Source: a virus. Taken from it: DNA of 22,928 nucleotides. The position numbers were made by a program, and so were the translations under genes. The stretch covers positions 1 to 22,928 of IMG/VR virus record IMGVR_UViG_3300045988_094583; one strand, 5' to 3'. Below the pieces are notes generated by a model. That model did no database searches and was not told the origin of the DNA. It was given only the letters and a program-made list of their open reading frames with translations. Of the stretch, positions 3,140 to 22,401 are shown one piece after another. The stretch's first letter is position 1. Each line of letters begins with the position of its first letter.

Positions 3140-3225
3140 GATAGGCTCCTTTCTTTACGCTTTTACGAGCAACCCCCTCGAACTCATGCAGCTTTTAACG
3201 TCGTCAGCACGGTCTGGACAAAGGG

Positions 3226-4191
3226 TTATTCACCCCACACACCGTTAACAGCTTCTTCATCAAGCGTGCTGCCGCCGGCTTTGTATTCCATTTTGATGTG
3301 TCCATACGCTGAACAACGACAGTTAGGGTGCATGGGGTACATGTTAACCCCTTTTTCTGCCTTGTTGATTGGTATGGCTTTTCTATCCAAAGGCTTACAG
3401 ATATCGCAAGCCCCACTTTCTGCAACATAGATTAAATGCGTGAAGTCGTTCTCTTTCAACATCATCAATTCTGTATCAGCATTAATACGAGCTATTTCGG
3501 TCTTGAGCAATCGTTGGGCGTTGGCTTGGCTTGTGTTATATTTCTTAGCTAACCGCCGCCGTTCCTGCTTAAAACCGTCCATATCGGCGAAGATACGCGC
3601 TAACGAGCTAAACACATCCTTCTGCATACTTGCATGAAGTCCGTTCCTGCCCCAAACTCTACGGCTAAAATTCTGTCCGTAGAAATCAGCGTCTAAGATG
3701 GCTCTCATGCGGCTTACTGCATTGACGGCAGAATTGCCCAAGATACCCGCTTGACGCTTAAATTCGGCTAAATATTCACTCTCACGCGCTTCATCGAAGA
3801 CTTCGTTAACGTCTGATATAAGACTAGCTATTTCAAGCCTTAATTCAGCTTTGAGTAGCTCCAACCGACTGACTTTCATTTTGAGGTTAAACAGTCTTAG
3901 CCATTGGTTAGTGCCGTGTGAGAAGTCTTTCTCGACTACTGCCTTTCTAGCTCGATCTCTGTACTCAGTGACATCGAACTCACTAGCCCGCTTCACAGCT
4001 TCAGCACGGCTTAGCCCCTCTTTGTCAGCGTAGCGCATGTAAAAGCCGTTTATTTGGCTCTGCATACGGTTATATGACGCTTGATAAAGCTCTTTTAAGA
4101 CCTTGTCACGCTCTATGTCACGCTTGATTAGGTCTGATTGCGCTTTTCTCTCGGCATTGTAGCGTTCATTATTCGTCATCATCCTCAACAC
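3226..4191 (-). CDS. Minor head / head morphogenesis protein (SPP1 gp7 / Mu F family)
   Basis: The C-terminal CDICKPLDRK...MHPNCRCS motif is characteristic of the family. The gene follows the portal gene. The track start is GTG at 4191, but the true start is more likely ATG at 4182 or 4179. Confidence 0.85.
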   Translation of the reverse strand: MLRMMTNNERYNAERKAQSDLIKRDIERDKVLKELYQASYNRMQSQINGFYMRYADKEGLSRAEAVKRASEFDVTEYRDRARKAVVEKDFSHGTNQWLRLFNLKMKVSRLELLKAELRLEIASLISDVNEVFDEARESEYLAEFKRQAGILGNSAVNAVSRMRAILDADFYGQNFSRRVWGRNGLHASMQKDVFSSLARIFADMDGFKQERRRLAKKYNTSQANAQRLLKTEIARINADTELMMLKENDFTHLIYVAESGACDICKPLDRKAIPINKAEKGVNMYPMHPNCRCSAYGHIKMEYKAGGSTLDEEAVNGVWGE

Positions 4192-5668
4192 CTACAATCT
4201 GACTAACTTCTAGATCAGTAGCCCCGCCCTCTTTGAGCAAACGGCTCTTTTCTTTGCGAGCGTCTGTGAAGCTAGCTGATTCCATAAGCGTCTCTTGTGA
4301 GATTTCCATGCCGGAATTGATAGCAGATTGAATCTCAGCCCATACGTCCGTTGGTAGGTTCTCATGAAACGTGAATGTCAGCATGTCAGCGTCCACCGGT
4401 TCGATTCCTTTGAGGTTGTTTGATAGCAACTCAAGCAGTTTATAGCGTCGTCTGAGCGCCTTGACAAAGAACCCACGCTTAACGGCTGTAACTTGCTGCA
4501 AATCAACTAGCTTGTAGCGGATAGCGATCCCAGACGTAGCTGAGAAAGTCGAATCGTCTTGCAAGTTAGGCAATCCAACAATGCGGAAGAAGTCTTTAAT
4601 CAAGCGCGACTTGTACGCTTCAACACCGCTCACATCATATTGCTTGTAGATATAGCCCGCATCTAAGGATGTTTGTTGTCCGTTGTGTCCAACTCCACTC
4701 TCAAGCACTAGCATGTTAGCGTGCTTCATTTTCATGATGTCGGACGCATTCATGCCGGTACTTTCAAAATCACCCTTGATAACAAGCATTGCGTCATTAA
4801 GGTCTGACATGTAGTTAGCTGTGTCCGACTCTGCTGCGTCGTAAGCGTCAATGATTGGAATGCCTTTCTCCCAGTCTCCCGAACGCTCTCGGTTATTCTG
4901 CCATTCAACCACTGGCACCATACCAAACGGATTTTCTTTTCGCTCGATTTCCTGCCAGTTTGGGTCATAGCTGACAATCTTGTTGTCGGTGTAAACTGTG
5001 ACAAACATCTCACCGTCATACACTGGACAATGCACAGCCGCAATGATATCCTTTCGGACGTCTGCGCTACGAATAGTGAACATCTCCCTTGCGTCAATCA
5101 AGACCACTGCTGGATTGCCAAACTCGTCATAGTAATGCAGCTCAAATGCTCGCCCAAAGCGTGAAGCGTCATAGACTAGCTCACGGTTAAGAGCTTCAAT
5201 GTCGTTGTAGGCGTTGAAATCATCAATAGCCGTCAAATCGCTGTTAGTGTCAGTAGCACCAATTGAAATAGGCTGCCCTACTGTATAACCAGTGAAGAAG
5301 CGGCTAGCTTGTCCCCCCAAGTCATGCCTAATACGGTAGTCAGCTTTTTCTGGTTCTAGTCGTTTGCGCCCATTTAGAATCGTGTAATTGTTCCCGTTTG
5401 AGTAGCTCTCTAGGATATTCAAGCGGTCTATCTGTCCGTCTTGAAACCGAGCTACCATCTTCTCTAACTTCTCACGCCCTTGGAACGTGTCCACTAGGTC
5501 ATCCGCTGATTGAGCCATGAAGTGTGTATTTGCTTCTTTGGGAAAATGAAGGAAGTCTTCACGTTTCTGCAAGCTAGTCGGTTCCATGTCTCGCTCGAAT
5601 TGATATGATCTAGGAATGTACTGCCCTTCATGTAAGATGTCGTCAGCACTATGTGTCGTGTTCGTCAT
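4169..5668 (-). CDS. Portal protein (SPP1 gp6-like)
   Basis: 499 aa. SD AAGGAG 5 nt before the ATG. Lies directly downstream of terL. Acidic C-terminus. Confidence 0.9.
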   Translation of the reverse strand: MTNTTHSADDILHEGQYIPRSYQFERDMEPTSLQKREDFLHFPKEANTHFMAQSADDLVDTFQGREKLEKMVARFQDGQIDRLNILESYSNGNNYTILNGRKRLEPEKADYRIRHDLGGQASRFFTGYTVGQPISIGATDTNSDLTAIDDFNAYNDIEALNRELVYDASRFGRAFELHYYDEFGNPAVVLIDAREMFTIRSADVRKDIIAAVHCPVYDGEMFVTVYTDNKIVSYDPNWQEIERKENPFGMVPVVEWQNNRERSGDWEKGIPIIDAYDAAESDTANYMSDLNDAMLVIKGDFESTGMNASDIMKMKHANMLVLESGVGHNGQQTSLDAGYIYKQYDVSGVEAYKSRLIKDFFRIVGLPNLQDDSTFSATSGIAIRYKLVDLQQVTAVKRGFFVKALRRRYKLLELLSNNLKGIEPVDADMLTFTFHENLPTDVWAEIQSAINSGMEISQETLMESASFTDARKEKSRLLKEGGATDLEVSQIVGVEDDDE

Positions 5669-5669
5669 T

Positions 5670-6950
5670 CTATCTCCTTATCAGTTTGTTAACCCATCTA
5701 ATCTTAGCGTCTACATCCTGCTTATCCTTGACGAAAATAAGGTTTTGCAGTGCGTACCTAATAGCGTCGATACAGTGGTTATAACTATCGCATGGCTTGT
5801 TGATGTACTCGTTTGTATGCTTATCTTTCTGCCATGTATAGTTCTCAAGTTCCTCAATCGTCTTGACACATCTCTCATCAACGATGATGTCGAACTGTTG
5901 CAAGAATTGAATCCCTTGTAGAACCGAACCTTTGCCCTTGTTTACCGGAATAGCTCGACGCAAGCCCAGTGTTTGCAGTTCAGCAATAGATTTCTGCTCT
6001 GCTGAGTCGGCCATAATCACCTCTTTTGAATAACCAAGGCTAGTAATAGCTTCTGCTATCTGGTTGTTAAGCAAGCCCTTCTTGACATATTCCTCTAGGA
6101 TATATAACCGCTTATTCTCTCGGTCTATTTTGACGTGCATAAACGCCGTGGGGTCGTTTGTGAATCCGAAGTCAAGACCAAAAAAGGACGGTAGCTGTTT
6201 AAGCTCGTCCTTATTGAGTAATCTCTTTTCATACTTTGGAAATACTAGCTTGTCAAGGGTGGCAAACTCACCCAAAGCATAGATTTTGTAGTAGGCTTCG
6301 TTTCGGTTTGCTAGCTCCTCGATATTCTCCTTGGTCAAGTCGTCCAGAAAGCGATTGTCCTTGTACGTCGTTTGATAAACCACTGTATTTTTAGGGTTCT
6401 TCACAAAAAACGCATTATATACCCAGTTAGCCTTAGACACCGGGTTAAACATCAAATAGATTTGTTTTTGTTTGTGGGCTTTATCTCTCAAGCGAAGCGT
6501 TAACTGCGTGTAATCATCAAGCGTAAACTCTGACGCTTCTTCCATCACAACGTCTGAAATGCCTTTGATAGACTTGATTTTCTCTGGGTTATCCATCCCT
6601 TTAAAAATCAGCTCAGCCCCGTTCGGTAACTCAATACGGAATGCGCTCATGTTAACCTTGCATAGATTAAGCACACCAAAGTAAGACAAGGCTGCTAGCA
6701 CGTCCGCAAACACCGAATCACGAACCGTAGACCCTACCTTACGCAATATCAATATTTTGCGGGGCTTATCCCACTTTTTAAGAGCTTTGAGGACTATCTT
6801 CTGGAAGACCCCGTGGCTCTTACCGCTAGACGCTCCGCCGTAATGAACCTCAGTGAATGTGTCGTAATCAAACAAATGCTCATAGATATGCCGATTAAAC
6901 ACCTTGCTTGGATTGATTTCAAGATTAATCGTCATTCCATTCACCGACAT
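5670..6950 (-). CDS. terL: Terminase large subunit (PBSX / Terminase_3-like)
   Basis: 426 aa. Walker A YGGASSGKS near the N-terminus and a nuclease-type C-terminal half. The alternative start at 6935 (MTINLE) gives a typical short overlap with terS. Confidence 0.92.
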   Translation of the reverse strand: MSVNGMTINLEINPSKVFNRHIYEHLFDYDTFTEVHYGGASSGKSHGVFQKIVLKALKKWDKPRKILILRKVGSTVRDSVFADVLAALSYFGVLNLCKVNMSAFRIELPNGAELIFKGMDNPEKIKSIKGISDVVMEEASEFTLDDYTQLTLRLRDKAHKQKQIYLMFNPVSKANWVYNAFFVKNPKNTVVYQTTYKDNRFLDDLTKENIEELANRNEAYYKIYALGEFATLDKLVFPKYEKRLLNKDELKQLPSFFGLDFGFTNDPTAFMHVKIDRENKRLYILEEYVKKGLLNNQIAEAITSLGYSKEVIMADSAEQKSIAELQTLGLRRAIPVNKGKGSVLQGIQFLQQFDIIVDERCVKTIEELENYTWQKDKHTNEYINKPCDSYNHCIDAIRYALQNLIFVKDKQDVDAKIRWVNKLIRR

Positions 6951-15556: not shown

Positions 15557-16525
15557 CTAGTATTTGCCGCAAGCAGGCCCAAATTTGGCTTTGCCGTTAT
15601 TTCGGGGCCTAGTCAAGAATGGCTTGTGTCTATCAACGGGGTTCTTGCTCATTTCAAACTGTCGTTGGTCTTCTTCCTGCTGTGCTACTGTTTTAATTCC
15701 GTTTTGTGCCCAATTTTTCAAGATTGCTTCAACGTATCCAAAAGAGCGTTTAGAATTATCGGCTGCTTTGTCAATGGCTATCTTGATTAATTCTGTTTCC
15801 ATACCATCAACAAATTGATAGGCTTCGAGTCTTTGTAGTTGCGAACCACTTAACACCCCGATTTGTTCTTGATAGTACTCAGCAAGGTTGAAATCTACAT
15901 TTTTGCCTGATGTTTCAGAATCAATTAAGCCAGATAAATCATTAGGATTGTGAGCAGTAGCAGAAGAAGATAGCTTTTTATTCTCTTCTACTTCTACTGC
16001 TTTATATTCACTTAGGTTAGATTCACTTTTATTCTCTTCCACTGACTTACCTTTACTTATATTGTCTTTACTTATATTATCTTTACTTATATTGGGGCAA
16101 CCAGTGGTTGTCATTTGGTTGTCATTTGGTTTACCAGTGGTTGTCATTTGGTGAGAATTTTCTGAAACATCGGAAGTTGAGTTATAAGTTATTGCTTGAC
16201 TATTGGATTCTTCAACGTCATTTTCTAATAATTTCTTGTAAACACTAGGAACATATCTATCCTTTCTGATAATGTTCTGTTTATGGAAATCGACCACGAA
16301 ATAAACCATTTCATCATTAAGAGGTTTTACGAATTGCTTGATAACTAGAAGTCCTAAGTTATCCTCGTTAGCTCCTATCATTCTAAGAATAGGGAATGCT
16401 TCCACCACTCCATCATCGTCGCAATTTTGGATGAGGTGAAAATAAAGAGCTTGTGCTTCTAGGGGTAGACGTAAGAAACGATGCGTTTGAGTAACAGTTT
16501 TACTTATCATTCTACGGTTTCCCAT
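15557..16525 (-). CDS. Replisome organiser / DnaD-domain replication initiator
   Basis: N-terminus FLRLPLEAQALYFHLIQNCDDDGVVE (phage replisome-organiser type). C-terminus FGYVEAILKNWAQNGIKT (DnaD domain). The low-complexity linker is encoded by DNA iterons. AGGAGG SD. Confidence 0.85.
   Translation of the reverse strand: MGNRRMISKTVTQTHRFLRLPLEAQALYFHLIQNCDDDGVVEAFPILRMIGANEDNLGLLVIKQFVKPLNDEMVYFVVDFHKQNIIRKDRYVPSVYKKLLENDVEESNSQAITYNSTSDVSENSHQMTTTGKPNDNQMTTTGCPNISKDNISKDNISKGKSVEENKSESNLSEYKAVEVEENKKLSSSATAHNPNDLSGLIDSETSGKNVDFNLAEYYQEQIGVLSGSQLQRLEAYQFVDGMETELIKIAIDKAADNSKRSFGYVEAILKNWAQNGIKTVAQQEEDQRQFEMSKNPVDRHKPFLTRPRNNGKAKFGPACGKY
16051..16151. repeat. Iteron cluster, putative phage origin of replication inside the initiator gene
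   Basis: CTTTACTTATATT occurs three times at 15-bp period (16051, 16066, 16081). TTGTCATTTGG occurs three times (16108, 16119, 16141). ACCAGTGGTTGTCATTTGG occurs twice (16100, 16133). Confidence 0.6.
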
Positions 16526-16598
16526 TTTCGCCTCCTGTATAATTGTATTTCTGATTATCTGCCATATTCAATGCCTGCCCTCCCACCACTTCAATTAT

Positions 16599-16919
16599 TT
16601 AATTAATTATTTTTCTCAAAAATGCTTTGATTTCGTCTTTTGTAACTTCGTTACGTTCTGTGCGTTCGAAGTCCGAGCCGTCAAGTTTAGTTACGTTGTA
16701 TTCGACTTCTACGATAAGCACTTCACAGCCAAACACTTCAGCGAGCTTGTCAAGATCGTTTTTTTGTTCTTCGTATGGTTCAAGCGGCAGAAATAGAGCA
16801 CCAATTAAATCAGTAGTGAAACCAGCTTCGAAAGCCAGAGTGCCTCTGTCTTTGTATTTCCCAAGGAATGCATCTTTTTCAGCACTGTAAAATACGACTT
16901 GTTTGTTATTCTCTTTCAT
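16599..16919 (-). CDS. Hypothetical protein (106 aa, acidic)
   Basis: GAGGAA SD. Starts 5 nt after the stop of the LPXTG gene. Confidence 0.6.
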   Translation of the reverse strand: MKENNKQVVFYSAEKDAFLGKYKDRGTLAFEAGFTTDLIGALFLPLEPYEEQKNDLDKLAEVFGCEVLIVEVEYNVTKLDGSDFERTERNEVTKDEIKAFLRKIIN

Positions 16920-16924
16920 GGTTG

Positions 16925-18763
16925 TTATTCCTCACCTTCGTTAAACTTCTTAAATCCAAGAGTTAGAGCAGCGATGCCGGCTGCAATGACTACGAGTCCA
17001 AGAGTGCTAGCAATTCCTTCTTTCTCACCAGTGTTTGGAAGAGTGCCACCGTAAACCGTCGTATTTGGTGCCTTATTTGGCTCAGAATCGTTTTTATACA
17101 CAACCTCGGTAATTTCTACCTCTTTTGTTTTCGGAGCGTCTACGGGCTTGTTAGGGGTATTTTCTGACGGTGTAGTTGGTTTAACTGGTTCATCAGGAAT
17201 TTCGATAATCAACTCAGGTTTATCGAGGATTGGAGCTTCATTAGGTACTACCCCTCCAGACCATTCTGGCTTATCAATGCTAGGTGCATCGAATGGAGTA
17301 GTTCCGCCATTCCATTCGGGTTTATCATACTGTGGCGCATCATTCGGGATAACGCCACCGTTCCATTCAGGCTTATCGTATTGTGGAGCGTCAAACGGTA
17401 CTGTTCCACCATTCCACTCCGGTTTTTCCAAAACCGGTGCATCGTTAGGCACTGTACCGATTGGTTCAGTGTATTCTGGTTTCACACGTTCTTCTGGAAT
17501 CCCTGGGATACCACCTTGGAACTCAGGAATTTCAACTTTTGGAGCTTCACGAGGAATTTCAAACGTTGGCTCCGGTTTGTTCTCGCCTGATGCATCGCCT
17601 TTACCACCGACAAGTTGAACATAACTGTATGAGATAGCACCGTCTGACTCAGCTTTCAACTCAACCTTATTGGTTGGGTTAGTTGAGTCTTTTACTGCAT
17701 TTGTTAGTTTAGTCTTGTACCAGATGTAAACCATGCGGTCTAATCTGTCCATTTTAAGCTCGAAGCCATGTTCAGACTTGCTGATTGATTTAACGAGTTC
17801 CATTGCTGAGCCTTTATCAATCCAAGGATCAGTGCTGTCGATATAATTCATGACAAAGTAGTCATCAACTAATTTCTGATTGTCTGACATGGTATCAATC
17901 AATGTCACATAATTAAGGACACGTCTAGCATAGTTCAAACGAACAGTCCAGTTGATAACAGTTGGGTCATTCTCGTCTTGGCTGCCCCATTTAGAAAGTA
18001 ATTCATCTTTACCGATTTCTTGCTCTTTTCCAATGTTTACAGTAACCACCGTACCATTGAAATTAACGTTAACTGGCTTGCCACTTTCAACCTTGTCAGT
18101 CCACTTAGCATCGAGCTTAAGACTCATTTGCTTGTTGAGTGGATGAGTAGCAAAGTAGTTATTGAATACAGTCGTAACTGTTTGTGTCTTAGGGTCAGTT
18201 GAAGCCTTACCCACAACAGCTTTTTCTGGGTTATAGACATCAAAATCATAGTTTGTTTGGAAGTTGATTTCTTTTGGAAGGTTGAATGTTACCTTATCCC
18301 CTTCGTTGATAGGCATATCATCAGGGAATTTTACGTCTTTATATTCAACGGTAAACCCTGAATACTTACCAGTTCCATTTGATTGATCAACGACAACATC
18401 TGGATTAGTTACTTTAATTTCGTTGTCTTCTTTGACAAATTCAGTAGGTTGTTTAGGTGTTTCTGCTACTGGGGCAGTAGTTTCCACTGGTTGCGCTGTT
18501 TCAGTAACTGGTGCAGTTTCAGTAACTGGTGCAGCTGCCACTGTTTCAGACGGTGTCACTGTCACGTTGCCGGCATTGTCAGCTGTGTAGACATTAGACA
18601 CCGCTGGTTGTGCATCTACCACTGGTGCAGCAGTTTCGTCCGCTGACACTGACCCAGCACCAATCAATAGAGCTGTCGCAATAGCAAGCGTGCCACACAA
18701 TCCAAATGCTTTTGATTTTACATAACCTGGTTTAGCGACTGTTTGAGTGTTAAAAGATTTCAT
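16925..18763 (-). CDS. LPXTG cell-wall-anchored surface protein, MSCRAMM-like adhesin with C-terminal 17-aa repeats
   Basis: ATG 18763 (MKSFNTQ...) has AAGGAG 8 nt upstream. Signal peptide ...ALLIGAGSVSA|DE. APVTET-type short repeats. A ~290-aa domain with Cna/Sdr-like motifs (TVTTVFNNYF, VINWTVRLNY). Repeats KPEWNGGxxPxDAPxxD. LPNTG, a hydrophobic helix and the KKFNEGEE tail. Confidence 0.85.
   Translation of the reverse strand: MKSFNTQTVAKPGYVKSKAFGLCGTLAIATALLIGAGSVSADETAAPVVDAQPAVSNVYTADNAGNVTVTPSETVAAAPVTETAPVTETAQPVETTAPVAETPKQPTEFVKEDNEIKVTNPDVVVDQSNGTGKYSGFTVEYKDVKFPDDMPINEGDKVTFNLPKEINFQTNYDFDVYNPEKAVVGKASTDPKTQTVTTVFNNYFATHPLNKQMSLKLDAKWTDKVESGKPVNVNFNGTVVTVNIGKEQEIGKDELLSKWGSQDENDPTVINWTVRLNYARRVLNYVTLIDTMSDNQKLVDDYFVMNYIDSTDPWIDKGSAMELVKSISKSEHGFELKMDRLDRMVYIWYKTKLTNAVKDSTNPTNKVELKAESDGAISYSYVQLVGGKGDASGENKPEPTFEIPREAPKVEIPEFQGGIPGIPEERVKPEYTEPIGTVPNDAPVLEKPEWNGGTVPFDAPQYDKPEWNGGVIPNDAPQYDKPEWNGGTTPFDAPSIDKPEWSGGVVPNEAPILDKPELIIEIPDEPVKPTTPSENTPNKPVDAPKTKEVEITEVVYKNDSEPNKAPNTTVYGGTLPNTGEKEGIASTLGLVVIAAGIAALTLGFKKFNEGEE
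17222..17425. repeat. Four in-frame 51-bp tandem repeats (plus two degenerate copies up to ~17539) within the LPXTG gene
   Basis: The DNA repeat ccattccattcrggyttatc... is read directly. It encodes KPEWNGGTVPFDAPQYD, KPEWNGGVIPNDAPQYD, KPEWNGGTTPFDAPSID and KPEWSGGVVPNEAPILD. Confidence 0.85.
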
Positions 18764-18771
18764 GGTATAAT
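18743..18771 (+). promoter_or_regulatory. Strong-looking plus-strand promoter antisense to the LPXTG gene start (-35 TTGAGT, 17 bp, extended -10 TGGTATAAT)
   Basis: Hexamers and spacing read directly. The -10 overlaps the LPXTG start codon and SD spacer on the opposite strand. Confidence 0.4.
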
Positions 18772-18791
18772 CTCCTTGGTGTATTTTTCTT

Positions 18792-18817
18792 GCATGGGCC
18801 CTAACCCATGCTTTTTT
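18792..18817 (+). terminator. Plus-strand intrinsic terminator in the LPXTG leader
   Basis: GCATGGG / CCCTAA / CCCATGC (7-bp perfect stem) followed by TTTTTT on the plus strand only. On the minus strand it is followed by AAGAAAAA. Confidence 0.45.
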
Positions 18818-18967
18818 AGTGCCTTCAATCCGCACCCAACGCCCACCGTGTCATGTTTTTCAATGTTTTTTTAGAAAGATAAGTGTGGGAAAAGTAAAGT
18901 TTATATTTTTGGGGAAAAGTATAAGTTACACTCTACGGTGAGCCGTGGCTACGGATTGAAGATGTTG

Positions 18968-19087
18968 CTATTTGCTATATTTCTGCTTGAGTCGTTCCTG
19001 TTTTTCTTCGGGCGTCTCCACCCACTCAAAGAAGGGCTCTGGTTGTTTCGGTTTCTTCTTGGAAAAAAGTTTTCTTAGTAGCTTCAT
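18968..19087 (-). CDS. Hypothetical 39-aa protein (MKLLRKLFSKKKPKQPEPFFEWVETPEEKQERLKQKYSK)
   Basis: Not in the track. Starts 4 nt after the upstream stop. Weak SD (TGGGGT). Confidence 0.35.
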   Translation of the reverse strand: MKLLRKLFSKKKPKQPEPFFEWVETPEEKQERLKQKYSK

Positions 19088-19090
19088 GAG

Positions 19091-19237
19091 TTACCCCACT
19101 AATTGATCTAATGGCAATCCGTGGTCAGCATTGAACTCTCTGACCTTTTCGTCAATCATTCGATGTGGACGAACTTCAAATACTTCCACTTCTTCGTTTT
19201 GTTTTTTAGACCAAATCCAATTGATAAGTTTTTTCAT
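19091..19237 (-). CDS. Hypothetical 48-aa protein (MKKLINWIWSKKQNEEVEVFEVRPHRMIDEKVREFNADHGLPLDQLVG)
   Basis: Not in the track. AAGGAG lies 8 nt upstream of ATG 19237. Confidence 0.5.
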   Translation of the reverse strand: MKKLINWIWSKKQNEEVEVFEVRPHRMIDEKVREFNADHGLPLDQLVG

Positions 19238-19250
19238 TGTTGTTTCTCCT

Positions 19251-19433
19251 TTAATTTAGAATTTCACCGTTGCTGAACACACCAAAACATGTCCCGTCTT
19301 TCATGATGACGTCAATGCCAACGTGGTGAGCACCATTTCTGTCAAAACGGATATCGTCAGTCAAGAAAGCTTTTTTAATTCCAAAGTTTTTGAAAAAAAT
19401 GACCATGCCTTTATTTGTTTTTAGGTTTCTCAT
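19251..19433 (-). CDS. Hypothetical protein (60 aa)
   Basis: ORF track entry. AAAGGAA upstream. First gene after the structured gap. Confidence 0.55.
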   Translation of the reverse strand: MRNLKTNKGMVIFFKNFGIKKAFLTDDIRFDRNGAHHVGIDVIMKDGTCFGVFSNGEILN

Positions 19434-19456
19434 GATGTTAATTTCCTTTCTGTTTT

Positions 19457-19582
19457 CCCTAACCGCACTAGAGAGCTAGTGAGGTTCATATATATTTAAG
19501 GAGACTTATGAATATCAAATCGTTGTTGCTTACTTAGTTGGTATCGTTCAGTTTCCTCACTAGCTCACTGCTACGGCTAGGG
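19457..19582. repeat. Composite imperfect inverted repeat (9-bp outer arms plus 12-bp perfect inner arms) enclosing ~70 bp
   Basis: Inner arms GAGCTAGTGAGG (19473-19484) and CCTCACTAGCTC (19555-19566). Outer arms CCCTAACCG (19457-19465) and CGGCTAGGG (19574-19582). The single mismatch in the outer arms becomes a G-U pair in minus-sense RNA. Confidence 0.6.
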
Positions 19583-19591
19583 GTGTTAATG

Positions 19592-19831
19592 TTATTTGAA
19601 TCTGTTTCTAGTTTTCCATTCGATGAAGGACTTAAACCCTTCATAGTTGATGAATACCAGTTTATGTGTTGGGTTGAATACGAACTTTTGAAAGTCTTTG
19701 TTATCCCTCATCTCTCGGACAAGGTTCTTTGCCATCGACTTCCCTAGACCTTCCCACCGCTGCATGAGGTGGTCGTAGTCTCCCCACTCAGCCGTCTCGT
19801 TAACCCCGACTGGTTTGTAGGTGATTTCCAT
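19592..19831 (-). CDS. Hypothetical protein (79 aa)
   Basis: AAAGGAG SD 6 nt upstream. No family recognised. Confidence 0.6.
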   Translation of the reverse strand: MEITYKPVGVNETAEWGDYDHLMQRWEGLGKSMAKNLVREMRDNKDFQKFVFNPTHKLVFINYEGFKSFIEWKTRNRFK

Positions 19832-19843
19832 TGGTTGCTCCTT

Positions 19844-19984
19844 TCAGGTCAACTTAGCAAGTAAGGTTAATTTCACTTCAGCATAGCCGTCCTCGGTTGT
19901 GCTTTTTATTTCAAACTCCGTAAGAGTTTGTAACTCTTGACCGTCCAAGGATACTTTATCTTCGCGGATTTTGATTTCATTCAT
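19844..19984 (-). CDS. Hypothetical 46-aa protein (MNEIKIREDKVSLDGQELQTLTEFEIKSTTEDGYAEVKLTLLAKLT)
   Basis: Not in the track. AAAGGAA lies 7 nt upstream of ATG 19984. It fills the gap between the antirepressor and the next gene. Confidence 0.5.
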   Translation of the reverse strand: MNEIKIREDKVSLDGQELQTLTEFEIKSTTEDGYAEVKLTLLAKLT

Positions 19985-20001
19985 AGCGTTTCCTTTCTGA
20001 T

Positions 20002-20727
20002 CTAAACTGTTAAGCGTTCTTGATTAAGAAACTTGTTGATGAAATACTGTTGGCCCTTGCCAGTAACCTTAGTTGTCGTGTTGGTAGTTGTATGGCCGTC
20101 AGCGTGATTAATATTTGTCTTTTTCAACTCAAACAGCTTTAAGTCCATGCTCTTTTGCGTTGGTTGATTCCAAGAATCTCCACGACGACTGATTAGATAG
20201 CCGTTAGAGCGTAGCCACTGAAAGAGCTTGTTTTGGCCGATATCAATCCCATTCTGTTTCAAGATTTTAGCCAGCTCACCAATTAGACAAGATGACTTGC
20301 TAGCACTGACAGCGTCAGCAAACAGCACTTTAGGACGGTCAGCTTCGATTTGTGCTTCTAGCTTATGGACTTTCTTATCAGCCATTAGCAACGCTCTAGC
20401 CATGATTTTCTCTGGACTGTTGAAGTCCTTTTCTACTTGGATGAAGTAAGTTCGAACTTGCTTGCCTTTATCTGTCCGCTGAATCATTGCGATTTCTTTT
20501 GCCATGTCCAACTTTAAGACGTGGTCAGTCATATCTTGTAGACCTCCAAGGGTATGACATTTTTGGGTCACCCTTAAATAGTCTTCGTTTTCAGCGAATC
20601 CATATTCTGTCATTCGCTTAAACCATTTCTTGTATTCCGTTTTAACTTCTAGTGTTTCATGGAGTTGTCTACCAGAAACAACTGGTTCATTATTTTCGTT
20701 TAATGATACGTTAATCAATTCGTTCAT
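20002..20727 (-). CDS. Phage antirepressor (AntA/ORF6N-type N-terminal domain plus KilAC/ORF6C-type C-terminal domain)
   Basis: 241 aa. SGRQLHETLEVKTEYKKWFKRMTEYGF...MAKEIAMIQRTDKGKQVRTYFI in the N-terminal part. RPKVLFADAV...IGELAKILKQNGIDIGQNKLFQWLR in the C-terminal part. Confidence 0.85.
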   Translation of the reverse strand: MNELINVSLNENNEPVVSGRQLHETLEVKTEYKKWFKRMTEYGFAENEDYLRVTQKCHTLGGLQDMTDHVLKLDMAKEIAMIQRTDKGKQVRTYFIQVEKDFNSPEKIMARALLMADKKVHKLEAQIEADRPKVLFADAVSASKSSCLIGELAKILKQNGIDIGQNKLFQWLRSNGYLISRRGDSWNQPTQKSMDLKLFELKKTNINHADGHTTTNTTTKVTGKGQQYFINKFLNQERLTV

Positions 20728-20746
20728 TGCTTGTTCCTTTCTTAAT

Positions 20747-20974
20747 TTATCGTTGCGTTTCGGGAACGGTTTGTTTAAAAAAAATACCGATTTCGTCTTT
20801 GCTATACCCTAAAAGGTCAGCTAGTGTGATAAGTTCGTCAGCAGAAAATGAGATTTTCCCATTCTCTCTCTTATTATACTGGTCACGAGCCAAACCCATT
20901 CGTTCAGCCATTTGTGCCTGCGTATAACCTTTTGCTACTCGCTCGGCTTTCACACGAAGCAAATCAACTTTCAT
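20747..20974 (-). CDS. Cro-like XRE-family HTH regulator, first gene of the lytic operon
   Basis: 75 aa. HTH GYTQAQMAERMGLARDQYNKRENG. GGAGG SD. Divergent from the CI-like gene. Confidence 0.85.
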   Translation of the reverse strand: MKVDLLRVKAERVAKGYTQAQMAERMGLARDQYNKRENGKISFSADELITLADLLGYSKDEIGIFFKQTVPETQR

Positions 20975-21005
20975 AGATTACCTCCGTTCGTTTGATTTTT
21001 ATTAC

Positions 21006-21046
21006 TTGTTCCTTAGAACAATTATAGTATATCTAAAGTGTTCCCA
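21006..21046. promoter_or_regulatory. Operator candidates in the lytic promoter region
   Basis: Palindrome TTGTTC-CTTA-GAACAA (21006-21021) lies in the cro leader. An inverted TGGGAAC copy (GTTCCCA, 21040-21046) lies in the -35/-10 spacer of the lytic promoter. Confidence 0.45.
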
Positions 21047-21054
21047 TTTGTCAA
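21026..21054 (-). promoter_or_regulatory. Early lytic promoter (-35 TTGACA, 17-bp spacer, -10 TATACT)
   Basis: Minus strand reads TTGACA-AATGGGAACACTTTAGA-TATACT, about 50 nt upstream of the cro-like start. Confidence 0.6.
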
Positions 21055-21084
21055 CACAAAAATAAAAAAAATATAAAAAAAGTT

Positions 21085-21118
21085 TATTTTTGGGAACGTA
21101 TTGTGTATTTTTGGGAAC
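21085..21118. promoter_or_regulatory. Two direct 13-bp operator-like repeats (TATTTTTGGGAAC) at 21-bp spacing, overlapping the CI promoter
   Basis: Copies at 21085-21097 and 21106-21118. They flank or overlap the -35 (21101-21106) and fill the spacer. Confidence 0.5.
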
Positions 21119-21129
21119 TGATGTATAAT
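21101..21129 (+). promoter_or_regulatory. Lysogenic (CI) promoter (-35 TTGTGT, 17-bp spacer, -10 TATAAT)
   Basis: Read directly. Lies about 30 nt upstream of the CI-like start, with an A/T tract (21055-21090) upstream. Confidence 0.55.
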
Positions 21130-21160
21130 GTATTTACTATTAAATAAAAGGAAAAAGTGC

Positions 21161-21514
21161 ATGAGAAACAACGAGGAAATTATTTCACTAATAAAAAGCT
21201 ATTTAGATAATAGTTCTATGTCGATGTCTGAACTAGCTAACAAAGCAGGGGTTTCAAAATCGACTTTATCAAGATATCTTTCTGGGAGTCGAGTGTTCCC
21301 ACTGAACAAAGCGGACGATTTCGCTAGTGCTTTAGGTTTAACAACAGAACAATTCTTAAATGTGACCCCTAGCCCGAAAGACACTGCTTCAAACGATATT
21401 GACGAGATCATAGCCAATGCCATGATGTTCGATGGTAAACCTCTTACAGAGGAAGATAAACGTGCCATTCGTGGCATAATTGCCGGCTATATGAGTAGCA
21501 AAGGGGATGTGTGA
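21161..21514 (+). CDS. CI-like XRE-family repressor
   Basis: Start chosen at ATG 21161 (MRNNEEIISL), with AAAGGAA upstream. The track start at 21128 lies inside the -10 box. HTH MSMSELANKAGVSKSTLSRYLSG. 117 aa. Confidence 0.85.
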   Translation: MRNNEEIISLIKSYLDNSSMSMSELANKAGVSKSTLSRYLSGSRVFPLNKADDFASALGLTTEQFLNVTPSPKDTASNDIDEIIANAMMFDGKPLTEEDKRAIRGIIAGYMSSKGDV

Positions 21515-22401
21515 TGGTTCGCAAACCCAAACAATCTTATAGAGATTTAGTTACTTTGCTTGACAACAATGGGGTTAGTTTTGAGCTTATGTCTAAAGGT
21601 AAAGCTATTACTTTTTTAGAAAAGAACAACTACTACTATAAAGTCTCTGCTTTTCGAAAAAATTTTAAAAAGAAAAACGGGAAGTATCAACATCTTGATT
21701 TTCAGCATCTTGTAGATCTAGCCACAATTGATATGTATTTGCGAGACACGCTTCTGGATATTGCTATTAATGTTGAACATTTTATAAAAGTCGAGTTATC
21801 TAGGTTAATTACTAACAATCCTGATGAAGATGGTTATACAATTGTTCAGGAATTCGCTGTCAATTATCCAACATACTATAACAGCACCTATAATAGGTTC
21901 AGACAATCTCGATATCAAAAGGATATGTTTCTAAAACGTGGGTCTGATATCCCGATTTGGGCGTTGATGGAGCACATGGATTATGGTTGCTTGTTAAAAT
22001 TAGTAGGACTTTATTTTGATAAGTATAGGCCCAGCTCTCTTCAAAAGGCTGTGACATTGGGTGATAACTCGAGACATCTCAGAAACGCTTGCGCTCACAA
22101 TAATGTCCTGATGGTAAATGTATTTAGAGATGACGAAAAATTGAATAGAGTTAATGCCGTAGTTAATACGTTTGCTAGACAAAAGGGTGTTCTCAAATAT
22201 CGTCAATACCGCAAAGTGAATGACCTTCTTTCACTCATTGCCTTATCAAATGCCTACTGTTCCACTGCGGTTCAATATCATCAAGGTTTAAAGATCCAAA
22301 ATCTTATTGACCGAATGCAAAGATATGCATCTGATTACACAAAAACGCCAGAACTGGTTAAAATGTTTACTATTTTTTGTAAAATCATTGACAATAAGTA
22401 A
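21514..22401 (+). CDS. Abi_2-family (AbiD/AbiD1/AbiF-like) abortive-infection protein
   Basis: 295 aa. SYRDLVTLLDNNGVSF...AITFLEKNNYYYKVSAFRKNF...LDFQHLVDLATIDMYLRDTLLDIAINVEHFIKVEL follows the Abi_2 N-terminal pattern as I remember it. The ATG overlaps the CI stop (TGATG). SD AAGGGGA. Confidence 0.75.
   Translation: MVRKPKQSYRDLVTLLDNNGVSFELMSKGKAITFLEKNNYYYKVSAFRKNFKKKNGKYQHLDFQHLVDLATIDMYLRDTLLDIAINVEHFIKVELSRLITNNPDEDGYTIVQEFAVNYPTYYNSTYNRFRQSRYQKDMFLKRGSDIPIWALMEHMDYGCLLKLVGLYFDKYRPSSLQKAVTLGDNSRHLRNACAHNNVLMVNVFRDDEKLNRVNAVVNTFARQKGVLKYRQYRKVNDLLSLIALSNAYCSTAVQYHQGLKIQNLIDRMQRYASDYTKTPELVKMFTIFCKIIDNK

Follow-up and report, generated by a model that had tools for sequence, protein, structure and literature searches.

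A sortase-anchored MSCRAMM-like adhesin gene behind a conserved structured leader at the head of the replication module in phages of the Streptococcus salivarius group

The stretch analyzed here (the window; 22,928 nucleotides, positions 1 to 22,928 of IMG/VR record IMGVR_UViG_3300045988_094583) is one half, the left, of a temperate siphophage of the Streptococcus salivarius group, shown in reverse. Between its small early genes and its replication genes it encodes a 612-residue surface adhesin of the MSCRAMM type, preceded by a non-coding structured leader of 204 nucleotides (Table 1). The interpretation favored here, to which we give a probability of roughly 0.6, is that this gene is cargo of the early operon and not an autonomous moron, and that its product is exported and anchored by sortase on the infected or induced cell under the control of the leader. 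Confidence differs between the parts of this interpretation: it is high for the identity of the protein as an MSCRAMM-like sortase-substrate surface protein, judged from sequence features and a structural model, moderate for the early timing of expression, which we infer, and low for the biological role of the adhesin.

The protein is assembled from the parts of a Gram-positive surface adhesin, most of which a first-pass annotation of the DNA had already named. The signal peptide proposed there is supported by a basic N-terminus and a hydrophobic core at residues 19 to 41 ending in VSA/DE, sequence features that are well conserved in the family. It is followed by the claimed APVTET-type spacer, which is indeed rich in Pro, Thr and Glu (AAPVTETAPVTET...) and carries a duplication of APVTET, visible in the DNA as an exact tandem repeat of 18 nt in 2.1 copies (18498-18534). 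This was the sole detection by Tandem Repeats Finder; the 17-residue repeats of the stalk escape the program at the DNA level through codon divergence. The head matches Pfam Big_8 (residues 143 to 225, 46.9 bits, cut-off 22.9) and Collagen_bind (residues 254 to 367, 49.8 bits, cut-off 27.5). In the stalk, four near-identical copies of KPEW[NS]GGxxPx[DE]APxxD occupy residues 447 to 514, with degenerate copies at residues 412 to 446 and 515 to 531, in agreement with the repeat pattern first described. The loose likeness to fibronectin-binding repeats that had been seen in them did not hold: the units correspond to SIALI-17, a repeat already catalogued as NCBIfam NF043031 (73.3 bits in five stretches; cut-off 30), and a Pfam scan of the protein at E ≤ 0.01 returned just Collagen_bind, Big_8 and Gram_pos_anchor, with no fibronectin-binding or Cna_B family. 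The predicted C-terminal anchor was found as described, with LPNTG at residue 575, a hydrophobic segment at residues 582 to 605, which together with residues 19 to 41 makes up the only two hydrophobic segments of the protein, and a charged KKFNEGEE tail. The TIGR01167 anchor model scores 16.6 against a cut-off of 15.9, and Pfam Gram_pos_anchor scores 17.6, slightly below its cut-off of 20. In a 279-residue S. sanguinis protein (P0220), a SIALI-17 stalk and an LPXTG anchor occur alongside a phage YopX domain (PF09643), and the stalk-anchor module seems to be reused with other heads.

Structural modeling places the head among the ligand-binding regions of known adhesins. A first AlphaFold model, computed from a shallow alignment of close relatives, reached a pLDDT of only 63.6 and a template-modeling (TM) score of about 0.3 to adhesins, and it was replaced. 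A second homologue search brought in relatives at 30 to 50% identity, and the AlphaFold2 rerun on this broader alignment gave a pLDDT of 84.5 and a pTM of 0.74. A lack of similarity to adhesin folds had been named beforehand as the observation that would speak against the assignment; in the Foldseek search against the PDB, all of the best 50 matches were two-subdomain adhesin A-regions, including RspB (9e-17), Cna (TM 0.52), SdrE, ClfA, SdrG, Cnm and Ace, with Bbp, SdrC/D, ClfB, UafA and fungal Als among the others. A library of predicted viral structures contained a single resembling protein, a ‘clumping factor’ of a metagenomic siphovirus. At the level of sequence, PDB searches with the single protein and with a shallow family profile gave no match; a more diverse family profile reached SdrE at E = 7e-6, and in that alignment the family motif VTTVFN(D/N)YF (VTTVFNNYF here) sits on the TYTFTDYVD motif of the MSCRAMMs. 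The Cna/Sdr-like domain that had been proposed from short motifs is thus borne out by both homology and structure checks. Taken together, the Pfam matches, the fold, the SdrE profile match and the anchor therefore identify an MSCRAMM-like sortase substrate, with a stalk unlike those of Cna and the Sdr proteins.

In the order of its parts, the protein corresponds to the MSCRAMM adhesins Cna, SdrE, SdrG and ClfA of S. aureus, Cnm of S. mutans, Ace of E. faecalis and RspB of Erysipelothrix, and the likeness extends to the pair of Big_8 and Collagen_bind, the TYTFTDYVD-like motif and Foldseek E values of 1e-17 to 1e-12 at TM scores up to 0.52. Unlike these proteins, the phage adhesin has neither Cna_B nor Ser-Asp repeats, its stalk being built of SIALI-17 units; the Cna_B stalk that a strict definition of the Cna family asks for was not found by Pfam at E ≤ 0.01. 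Its gene lies in a phage early operon, whereas MSCRAMM genes are chromosomal. A close relative (P0057) bears the NCBI name attached to NF043031, ‘SIALI-17 repeat-containing surface protein’, a repeat-based name for streptococcal proteins that is silent on phage carriage or function. Homologues in S. salivarius phages are annotated inconsistently, as ‘LPXTG cell wall anchor domain-containing protein’, ‘sialidase’ or ‘hypothetical protein’.

The limits of the gene differ from those first drawn. The program-made list of open reading frames (ORFs) gives 16925-18835 with a GTG start and 636 residues. The credible start is the ATG at 18763, with AAGGAG 8 nt upstream, from which the protein opens with a normal signal peptide. 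Because of this start, the interval 16925-18960 that had been proposed as the gene is a coding sequence joined to most of the leader: the part from 16925 to 18763 stands as an intact coding sequence, and the remainder belongs to the non-coding 204 nt (18764-18967). As had been stated, the next ORF (16599-16919) follows 5 nt past the adhesin stop, and the Shine-Dalgarno sequence of this 106-residue ORF (GGTGAGGAA) lies inside the final adhesin codons.

Genomic neighborhood analysis confirms that the gene is located between the tiny early ORFs and the replication module, in lytic orientation, with DnaD-like and DnaC-like genes downstream. The positional oddity pointed out in the first-pass annotation is real, as the protein is plainly not a replication protein, but it is not a one-off, the slot being occupied in more than 100 related contigs. 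That annotation had also allowed for a conserved replication-associated protein in this slot; the slot is conserved, and its occupant is not replication-associated. Among IMG/VR contigs, the adhesin is directly downstream of the leader in 152 of 167 leader matches, and the gene 3' of the adhesin belongs to six unrelated families, corresponding to different replication modules. The GenBank phages YMC-2011 (Ssal_phage00024), SA-TP2 (gp23) and Javan534, Javan535, Javan536 and Javan539 encode proteins 59 to 68% identical to the adhesin in the same slot behind the same leader, with three different replication modules among them. In S. mitis Javan311, S. parasanguinis Javan371 and three other streptococcal genomes, a homologue lies within or beside the replication genes, again in lytic orientation. 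Three contigs have empty sites in which the ribosome-binding site (RBS) and ATG of the leader are joined straight to the 106-residue ORF. An insertion spanning 16599-18960, as had been suggested, is therefore wrong at both ends, because the leader and the 106-residue ORF also occur in phages that lack the adhesin; the adhesin ORF alone is the variable cargo, and it has been inserted exactly between the leader, RBS included, and the first gene of the replication module. Placement at the head of the replication module is the rule for this phage group.

Other occupants of the slot were also observed. In the S. vestibularis phage SVep1 (L202, 3204-3779), it is filled by a 191-residue ORF with NAWVYG-type repeats, and three IMG/VR contigs have a member of this ORF family after the adhesin. 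The content of the slot in SVep1 and in these contigs therefore marks the position behind the leader as a general cargo slot. The adhesin-less phages 2972 (L204, ~2925-2969) and P7954 (L201, ~3198-3248) carry a 14-codon mini-ORF after the leader RBS (MKTFKITTIREGRN), which over its first 24 nt agrees with the beginning of the adhesin gene at 17 positions; to judge by this similarity, the mini-ORF may be an adhesin deletion scar or an ancestral upstream ORF.

The gene is widespread and maintained. A protein search gave at least 8000 matches, of which the best 120 are 78 to 88% identical overall and nearly all singletons at 90% clustering; many of these 120 lie on contigs of 37 to 45 kb. In more than 100 related phage contigs the gene is intact and invariably in lytic orientation, and the first ORF 3' of the leader is full length in 103 of 109 distinct cases. 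Among 104 distinct alleles recovered with their flanks, the pairwise ratio of nonsynonymous to synonymous divergence (dN/dS) is 0.11 to 0.22 in every region with dS saturated, and the neighboring ORF behaves in the same way. In these alleles the head is the most variable part, the signal peptide, the proximal stalk and the anchor are among the best conserved, and an LPxTG-type motif is present throughout (104/104: LPNTG in 61, LPNAG in 9, other LPxTG variants in the remainder); the number of SIALI-17 copies ranges from 1 to 5 among relatives. Because the alleles are intact, the anchor is kept and dN/dS is low at saturated dS, the gene is old, functional and diverse, neither a decaying passenger nor a gene under detectable positive selection. 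Diversifying selection was considered and is not supported, dN/dS being about 0.2.

These data leave very little probability for a functionless passenger, that is, a hitch-hiking remnant of a chromosomal adhesin brought in by illegitimate recombination at a module boundary and tolerated there. The mosaic junction with six different downstream modules and the lack of the gene in some relatives (the empty-site contigs, SVep1 and the S. thermophilus phages) are what such an origin would produce, but a remnant would hardly be intact in 103 of 109 distinct alleles, show a dN/dS near 0.2 with saturated dS, keep its signal peptide and anchor among its best-conserved parts and recur in the early regions of unrelated streptococcal phages.

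Only phages of commensal streptococci, among them those of S. salivarius, S. mitis and S. parasanguinis, were found to carry homologues, and a scan of a genome collection holding one genome per species returned four loci only. A record labeled ‘Campylobacter phage CJLB-5’ (MW057932.1, L006) encodes a member of this LPXTG adhesin family at 4923-6353, in a comparable slot within or beside the replication genes and in lytic orientation; since the sources of its close relatives list them as Streptococcus sp., S. panodentis or S. sanguinis, the Campylobacter label is doubtful.

The leader is more widely distributed than the adhesin. Its DNA is conserved 5' of the adhesin in 81 loci, and 159 phage records contain it, the majority from S. 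thermophilus phages without the adhesin (~150, virulent and temperate), in which it precedes the first gene of the replication module; it also occurs in S. vestibularis phages. The copy in phage 2972 separates ORF32 from ORF33 (L204, 2724-2966), and loci L201, L202 and L203 carry it as well. Analysis of 70 distinct leaders by RNAalifold and pair counts reveals a 26-bp long-range helix that encloses a variable AT-rich loop, 73 nt long here (18856-18928). The helix positions are paired in 99.3% of cells, with compensatory changes in 14 of the 23 main-helix pairs. None of 500 shuffles was as good, and sliding the partner by 1 to 3 columns left 22 to 46% paired. The cells of the helix include 267 G.U as opposed to 11 A.C combinations, and the helix is therefore selected as sense-strand RNA, with both arms in one transcript. 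The leader folds with a minimum free energy of -60.1 kcal/mol (z -5.0 relative to shuffled sequence), and an Rfam 15 search of 16400-21300 at E ≤ 1 gave no match for it. Two other readings of the element were set aside: a miniature inverted-repeat transposable element is disfavored by the strand-specific G.U bias, and a replication origin is at odds with the prediction that places the origin of these phages 3' of the replication module (PMC13575424).

The position of the helix bears directly on how the gene is transcribed. The 5' arm starts about 9 nt past the upstream stop codon, and together with the sense-strand character of the helix this argues that transcription enters from upstream, as an early polycistronic RNA. 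The first-pass annotation had found no convincing sigma-A promoter upstream of the gene, and this stands: a scan of the minus strand of 18764-18967 gave no sigma-70-type site, and the 70 aligned leaders hold no conserved sense promoter. For the same reason, and because the same leader is present in ~150 S. thermophilus phages without the adhesin, the leader was rejected as an adhesin-specific promoter. The terminator scan detected no minus-strand terminator-like site between the P_R-like promoter (21026-21054) and the adhesin, nor any after the adhesin. One candidate for a terminator between P_R and the adhesin, the hairpin at 19880-19903, lies on the sense strand inside a coding ORF and lacks a T run. 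The gene has neither the own promoter nor the own terminator of a moron cassette. In phage 2972, the promoter of cro (ORF31) drives early transcription at 0-5 min, and the genes downstream of ORF31, replication genes included, are classed as early (PMC13575424). Because the adhesin ORF is slotted between the leader RBS and the replication module, it would be transcribed within the Cro-side early operon.

A second conserved element of the leader region faces in the opposite direction. On the antisense strand, an extended -10 sequence, TGnTATA(A/C)T, lies over the spacer between the Shine-Dalgarno sequence and the ATG in 70 of 70 leaders, preceded at 17 nt by TTGAGT in 52 of 70, and a GC-rich hairpin followed by T6-8 is located 20 to 24 nt downstream of this -10 in all 70. 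The hairpin, H3, has two covarying pairs. In phages 2972 and P7954, one stem position of H3 reads C.A in the sense strand and G.U in the antisense strand, which fits a hairpin acting in the antisense transcript. At another locus (L015, 5790-6003), the loop of H3 is exactly inverted (GCATGGG-CCCTAA-CCCATGC as opposed to GCATGGG-TTAGGG-CCCATGC), and it looks as if the hairpin had been flipped by recombination within its stem. From their sequences, the promoter and terminator are predicted to direct constitutive synthesis of a ~40-nt cis-antisense RNA, from about 18778 to 18817 on the plus strand of the window, with complementarity to the 5' untranslated region (UTR) beside the RBS, and this RNA would damp leaky expression of whichever gene follows the leader.

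The layout recalls the sar RNA of P22 and the oop RNA of lambda, short convergent transcripts with their own promoter and terminator over the 5' region of an early gene. The convergent promoter and intrinsic terminator around a short antisense unit that characterize this arrangement are all present in the leader at the sequence level; unlike sar and oop, the leader unit has no sequence relation to either RNA and no Rfam family, and its RNA, predicted at ~40 nt, is known from sequence alone. The long-range helix is plausibly an RNase III or stability element, on the strength of its predicted structure. RNase III sites in early polycistronic phage mRNAs (T7, the lambda N leader, SP82) are likewise long near-perfect duplexes. 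In the proposed mechanism, the 26-bp helix would act in this capacity on the sense transcript, and the opposing ~40-nt antisense RNA would reduce leakiness in the lysogen.

Under the early-operon interpretation, synthesis of the adhesin would follow infection or induction of the prophage, also where a fraction of a lysogenic culture induces spontaneously. Sec would export the protein and sortase would link it to the wall, leaving it exposed on infected cells in the latent period. The head would most likely bind a host-matrix, salivary or bacterial surface ligand, and infected or induced cells would become stickier in the oral or gut niche. A bolder form of this proposal is that streptococcal phages alter the stickiness of cells they are about to kill, with the adhesin behind a control region of helix and sar-like antisense unit that is Aliceevansviridae-wide and includes phage 2972, and that tethered cells release progeny inside dense hosts; we regard it as speculative and rather doubtful. 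Phages that confer surface adhesion on Gram-positive hosts are known from other settings. SasX is an LPXTG protein encoded on a phiSPbeta-like S. aureus prophage, small, devoid of an MSCRAMM head and located at the prophage end, and PblA and PblB of the S. mitis phage SM1 are components of the virion tail that attach to the cell surface again once lysis has occurred; neither system heads a replication module.

Several points weigh against the early-operon interpretation. The early timing is argued from architecture and from analogy with phage 2972, and both the antisense RNA and the involvement of RNase III are predicted from sequence. Weak 8/12 promoter matches are scattered in the AT-rich loop of the leader, and this loop could hide a weak or activator-dependent promoter missed by consensus scans. 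An adhesin anchored minutes before lysis has no obvious pay-off, and no ligand can be named or inferred, because identity to any solved adhesin structure is just 12 to 17%. Finally, the gene is missing from all dairy S. thermophilus phages in the collection, which fits a benefit tied to the mucosal niche of the host, the classical logic of lysogenic conversion.

Lysogenic conversion is accordingly the main rival, a possibility to be taken seriously though an unlikely one. Here a stable lysogen would produce the adhesin, with a cryptic loop promoter or leaky or episomal early transcription as the source, the host would colonize mucosa, saliva-coated surfaces or partner bacteria, and the phage would gain through host fitness. 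The occurrence of homologues just in phages of commensal streptococci, with none in the leader-sharing S. thermophilus dairy phages, the strong purifying selection on the gene and the concentration of variability in the head, as expected for an exposed ligand-binding or antigenic domain, all agree with such a role. There is precedent in phage-borne LPXTG colonization factors such as SasX of S. aureus, and YMC-2011 reportedly persists as a multicopy episome, as Chou et al. are said to have described in 2017. Transcription is where this account meets difficulty: the sense strand of the 70 leaders lacks a conserved sigma-A promoter, the strand-specific helix requires transcription that enters 5' of the leader, and the conserved antisense promoter and terminator over the 5' UTR would oppose leaky expression. 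With no terminator after the adhesin and a translationally coupled ORF on the replication side, constitutive transcription would moreover run into the replication genes.

A different lytic-cycle function, a surface shield, was also weighed and is improbable. In this scheme the early wall-anchored protein would mask or bind the phage's own cell-wall receptor, so that superinfection is excluded and progeny are not wasted on debris, in the manner of the early lipoprotein Llp of T5 or Ltp of S. thermophilus phages. The location of the gene in the early operon and the surface exposure of its product would suit a shield, and the deep diversity of the head (78 to 88% identity among the best 120 of at least 8000 matches) might track receptor or phage diversity. 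The protein, however, has no match in PHROG or in the PADLOC models and does not resemble Ltp-type proteins. Inspection of the sequence found no lipobox (FGLC mismatches L-[AS]-[GA]-C), its fold is that of host-ligand adhesins, and dN/dS gives no sign of an arms race. A large fibrillar protein would, in addition, be an improbable means of masking a plentiful wall polysaccharide in the span of a single latent period.

In both DNA and protein searches, the phage falls among those of the S. salivarius / S. thermophilus group. Apart from the CI-like, AbiD-like and M78 genes at the right end, the whole window is coded on the minus strand. On that strand, the antirepressor gene is followed by an excisionase-like ORF and several tiny ORFs, then by the 204-nt gap and the adhesin ORF. 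After the 106-residue ORF come DnaD-like, DnaC-like, RecT, PD-(D/E)XK nuclease, SSB and RusA genes, and then terminase, portal and capsid genes. A possible weak second early promoter, TTGATA-18-TATATA (19489-19518, minus strand), lies between the excisionase-like ORF and the following small ORF, close to two short inverted repeats; it lacks the final T of the -10 and was not listed by the promoter scan. The AbiD-like abortive-infection gene (21511-22401, plus strand) sits within the lysogeny module, flanked by the CI-like repressor and the M78 peptidase, and this module is the expected place for cargo expressed in the lysogen.

Table 1. Features of the window, in window coordinates.
Feature	Position	Strand	Basis or remark
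Adhesin coding sequence, 612 aa, SIALI-17 repeat-containing, LPXTG-anchored, MSCRAMM-like	16925-18763	-	ORF, Pfam, NCBIfam, dN/dS
Predicted signal peptide, aa 1-41, predicted cleavage after VSA	18641-18763	-	hydropathy, motif
Pro/Thr/Glu-rich spacer, aa 42-112, with APVTET duplication	18428-18640	-	translation
A-region, aa 100-400, two tandem MSCRAMM-type Ig-like subdomains	17564-18466	-	Pfam, AlphaFold2, Foldseek, profile
SIALI-17 repeat stalk, aa 412-531	17171-17530	-	NF043031, regex positions
Cell-wall sorting signal: LPNTG, hydrophobic segment, KK-containing tail	16928-17041	-	TIGR01167, hydropathy
Non-coding structured leader, 204 nt	18764-18967	-	conserved DNA, RNA fold
Long-range helix, 5' arm	18929-18959	-	RNAalifold, pair counts
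Long-range helix, 3' arm	18825-18855	-	RNAalifold, pair counts
Predicted antisense sigma-A-type promoter, TTGAGT-17-TGGTATAAT	18743-18771	+	scan 10/12 with TG; overlaps adhesin start codon
Hairpin H3 (7 bp) + T6, intrinsic-terminator-like	18792-18817	+	terminator scan
106-aa ORF, phrog_2486	16599-16919	-	PHROG 5e-32; predicted translational coupling to adhesin
Small early ORF, 39 aa	18968-19087	-	immediately 5' of leader; one ORF family in 74/74 readable loci
Antirepressor gene	20002-20727	-	
Cro-like helix-turn-helix gene	20747-20974	-	
P_R-like early promoter, TTGACA-17-TATACT	21026-21054	-	promoter scan 11/12; precedes Cro-like gene
CI-like helix-turn-helix repressor	21128-21514	+	right end, divergent from Cro side
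AbiD-like gene	21511-22401	+	Pfam Abi_2, PADLOC AbiD 1e-21
M78/ImmA-type peptidase	22509 onward	+	

The kind of protein is already known, and the gene is annotated in several GenBank phage records. Literature searches turned up no paper dealing with the LPXTG gene of YMC-2011, with SIALI-17 or with adhesins of S. salivarius prophages, and no study of the position, regulation or function of the adhesin. New in this analysis are a conserved position for an MSCRAMM-type adhesin gene at the entrance of the replication module, evidence for its transcription as part of the early RNA, and the structured leader with its predicted antisense unit, which is common to S. thermophilus phages.

S. salivarius is a dominant early colonizer of the human mouth and small intestine, and most of its temperate phages in this analysis carry the adhesin gene; these phages may therefore hold a sizeable reservoir of adhesins for this niche, both mobile and very diverse. 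The strongly covarying leader RNA corresponds to no described RNA family, and it is part of the early operon in S. thermophilus phages that matter to industry. If the adhesin is indeed expressed early in the lytic cycle, it would represent an unusual, virus-timed change in bacterial surface adhesion, as opposed to a standing trait acquired by lysogenic conversion.

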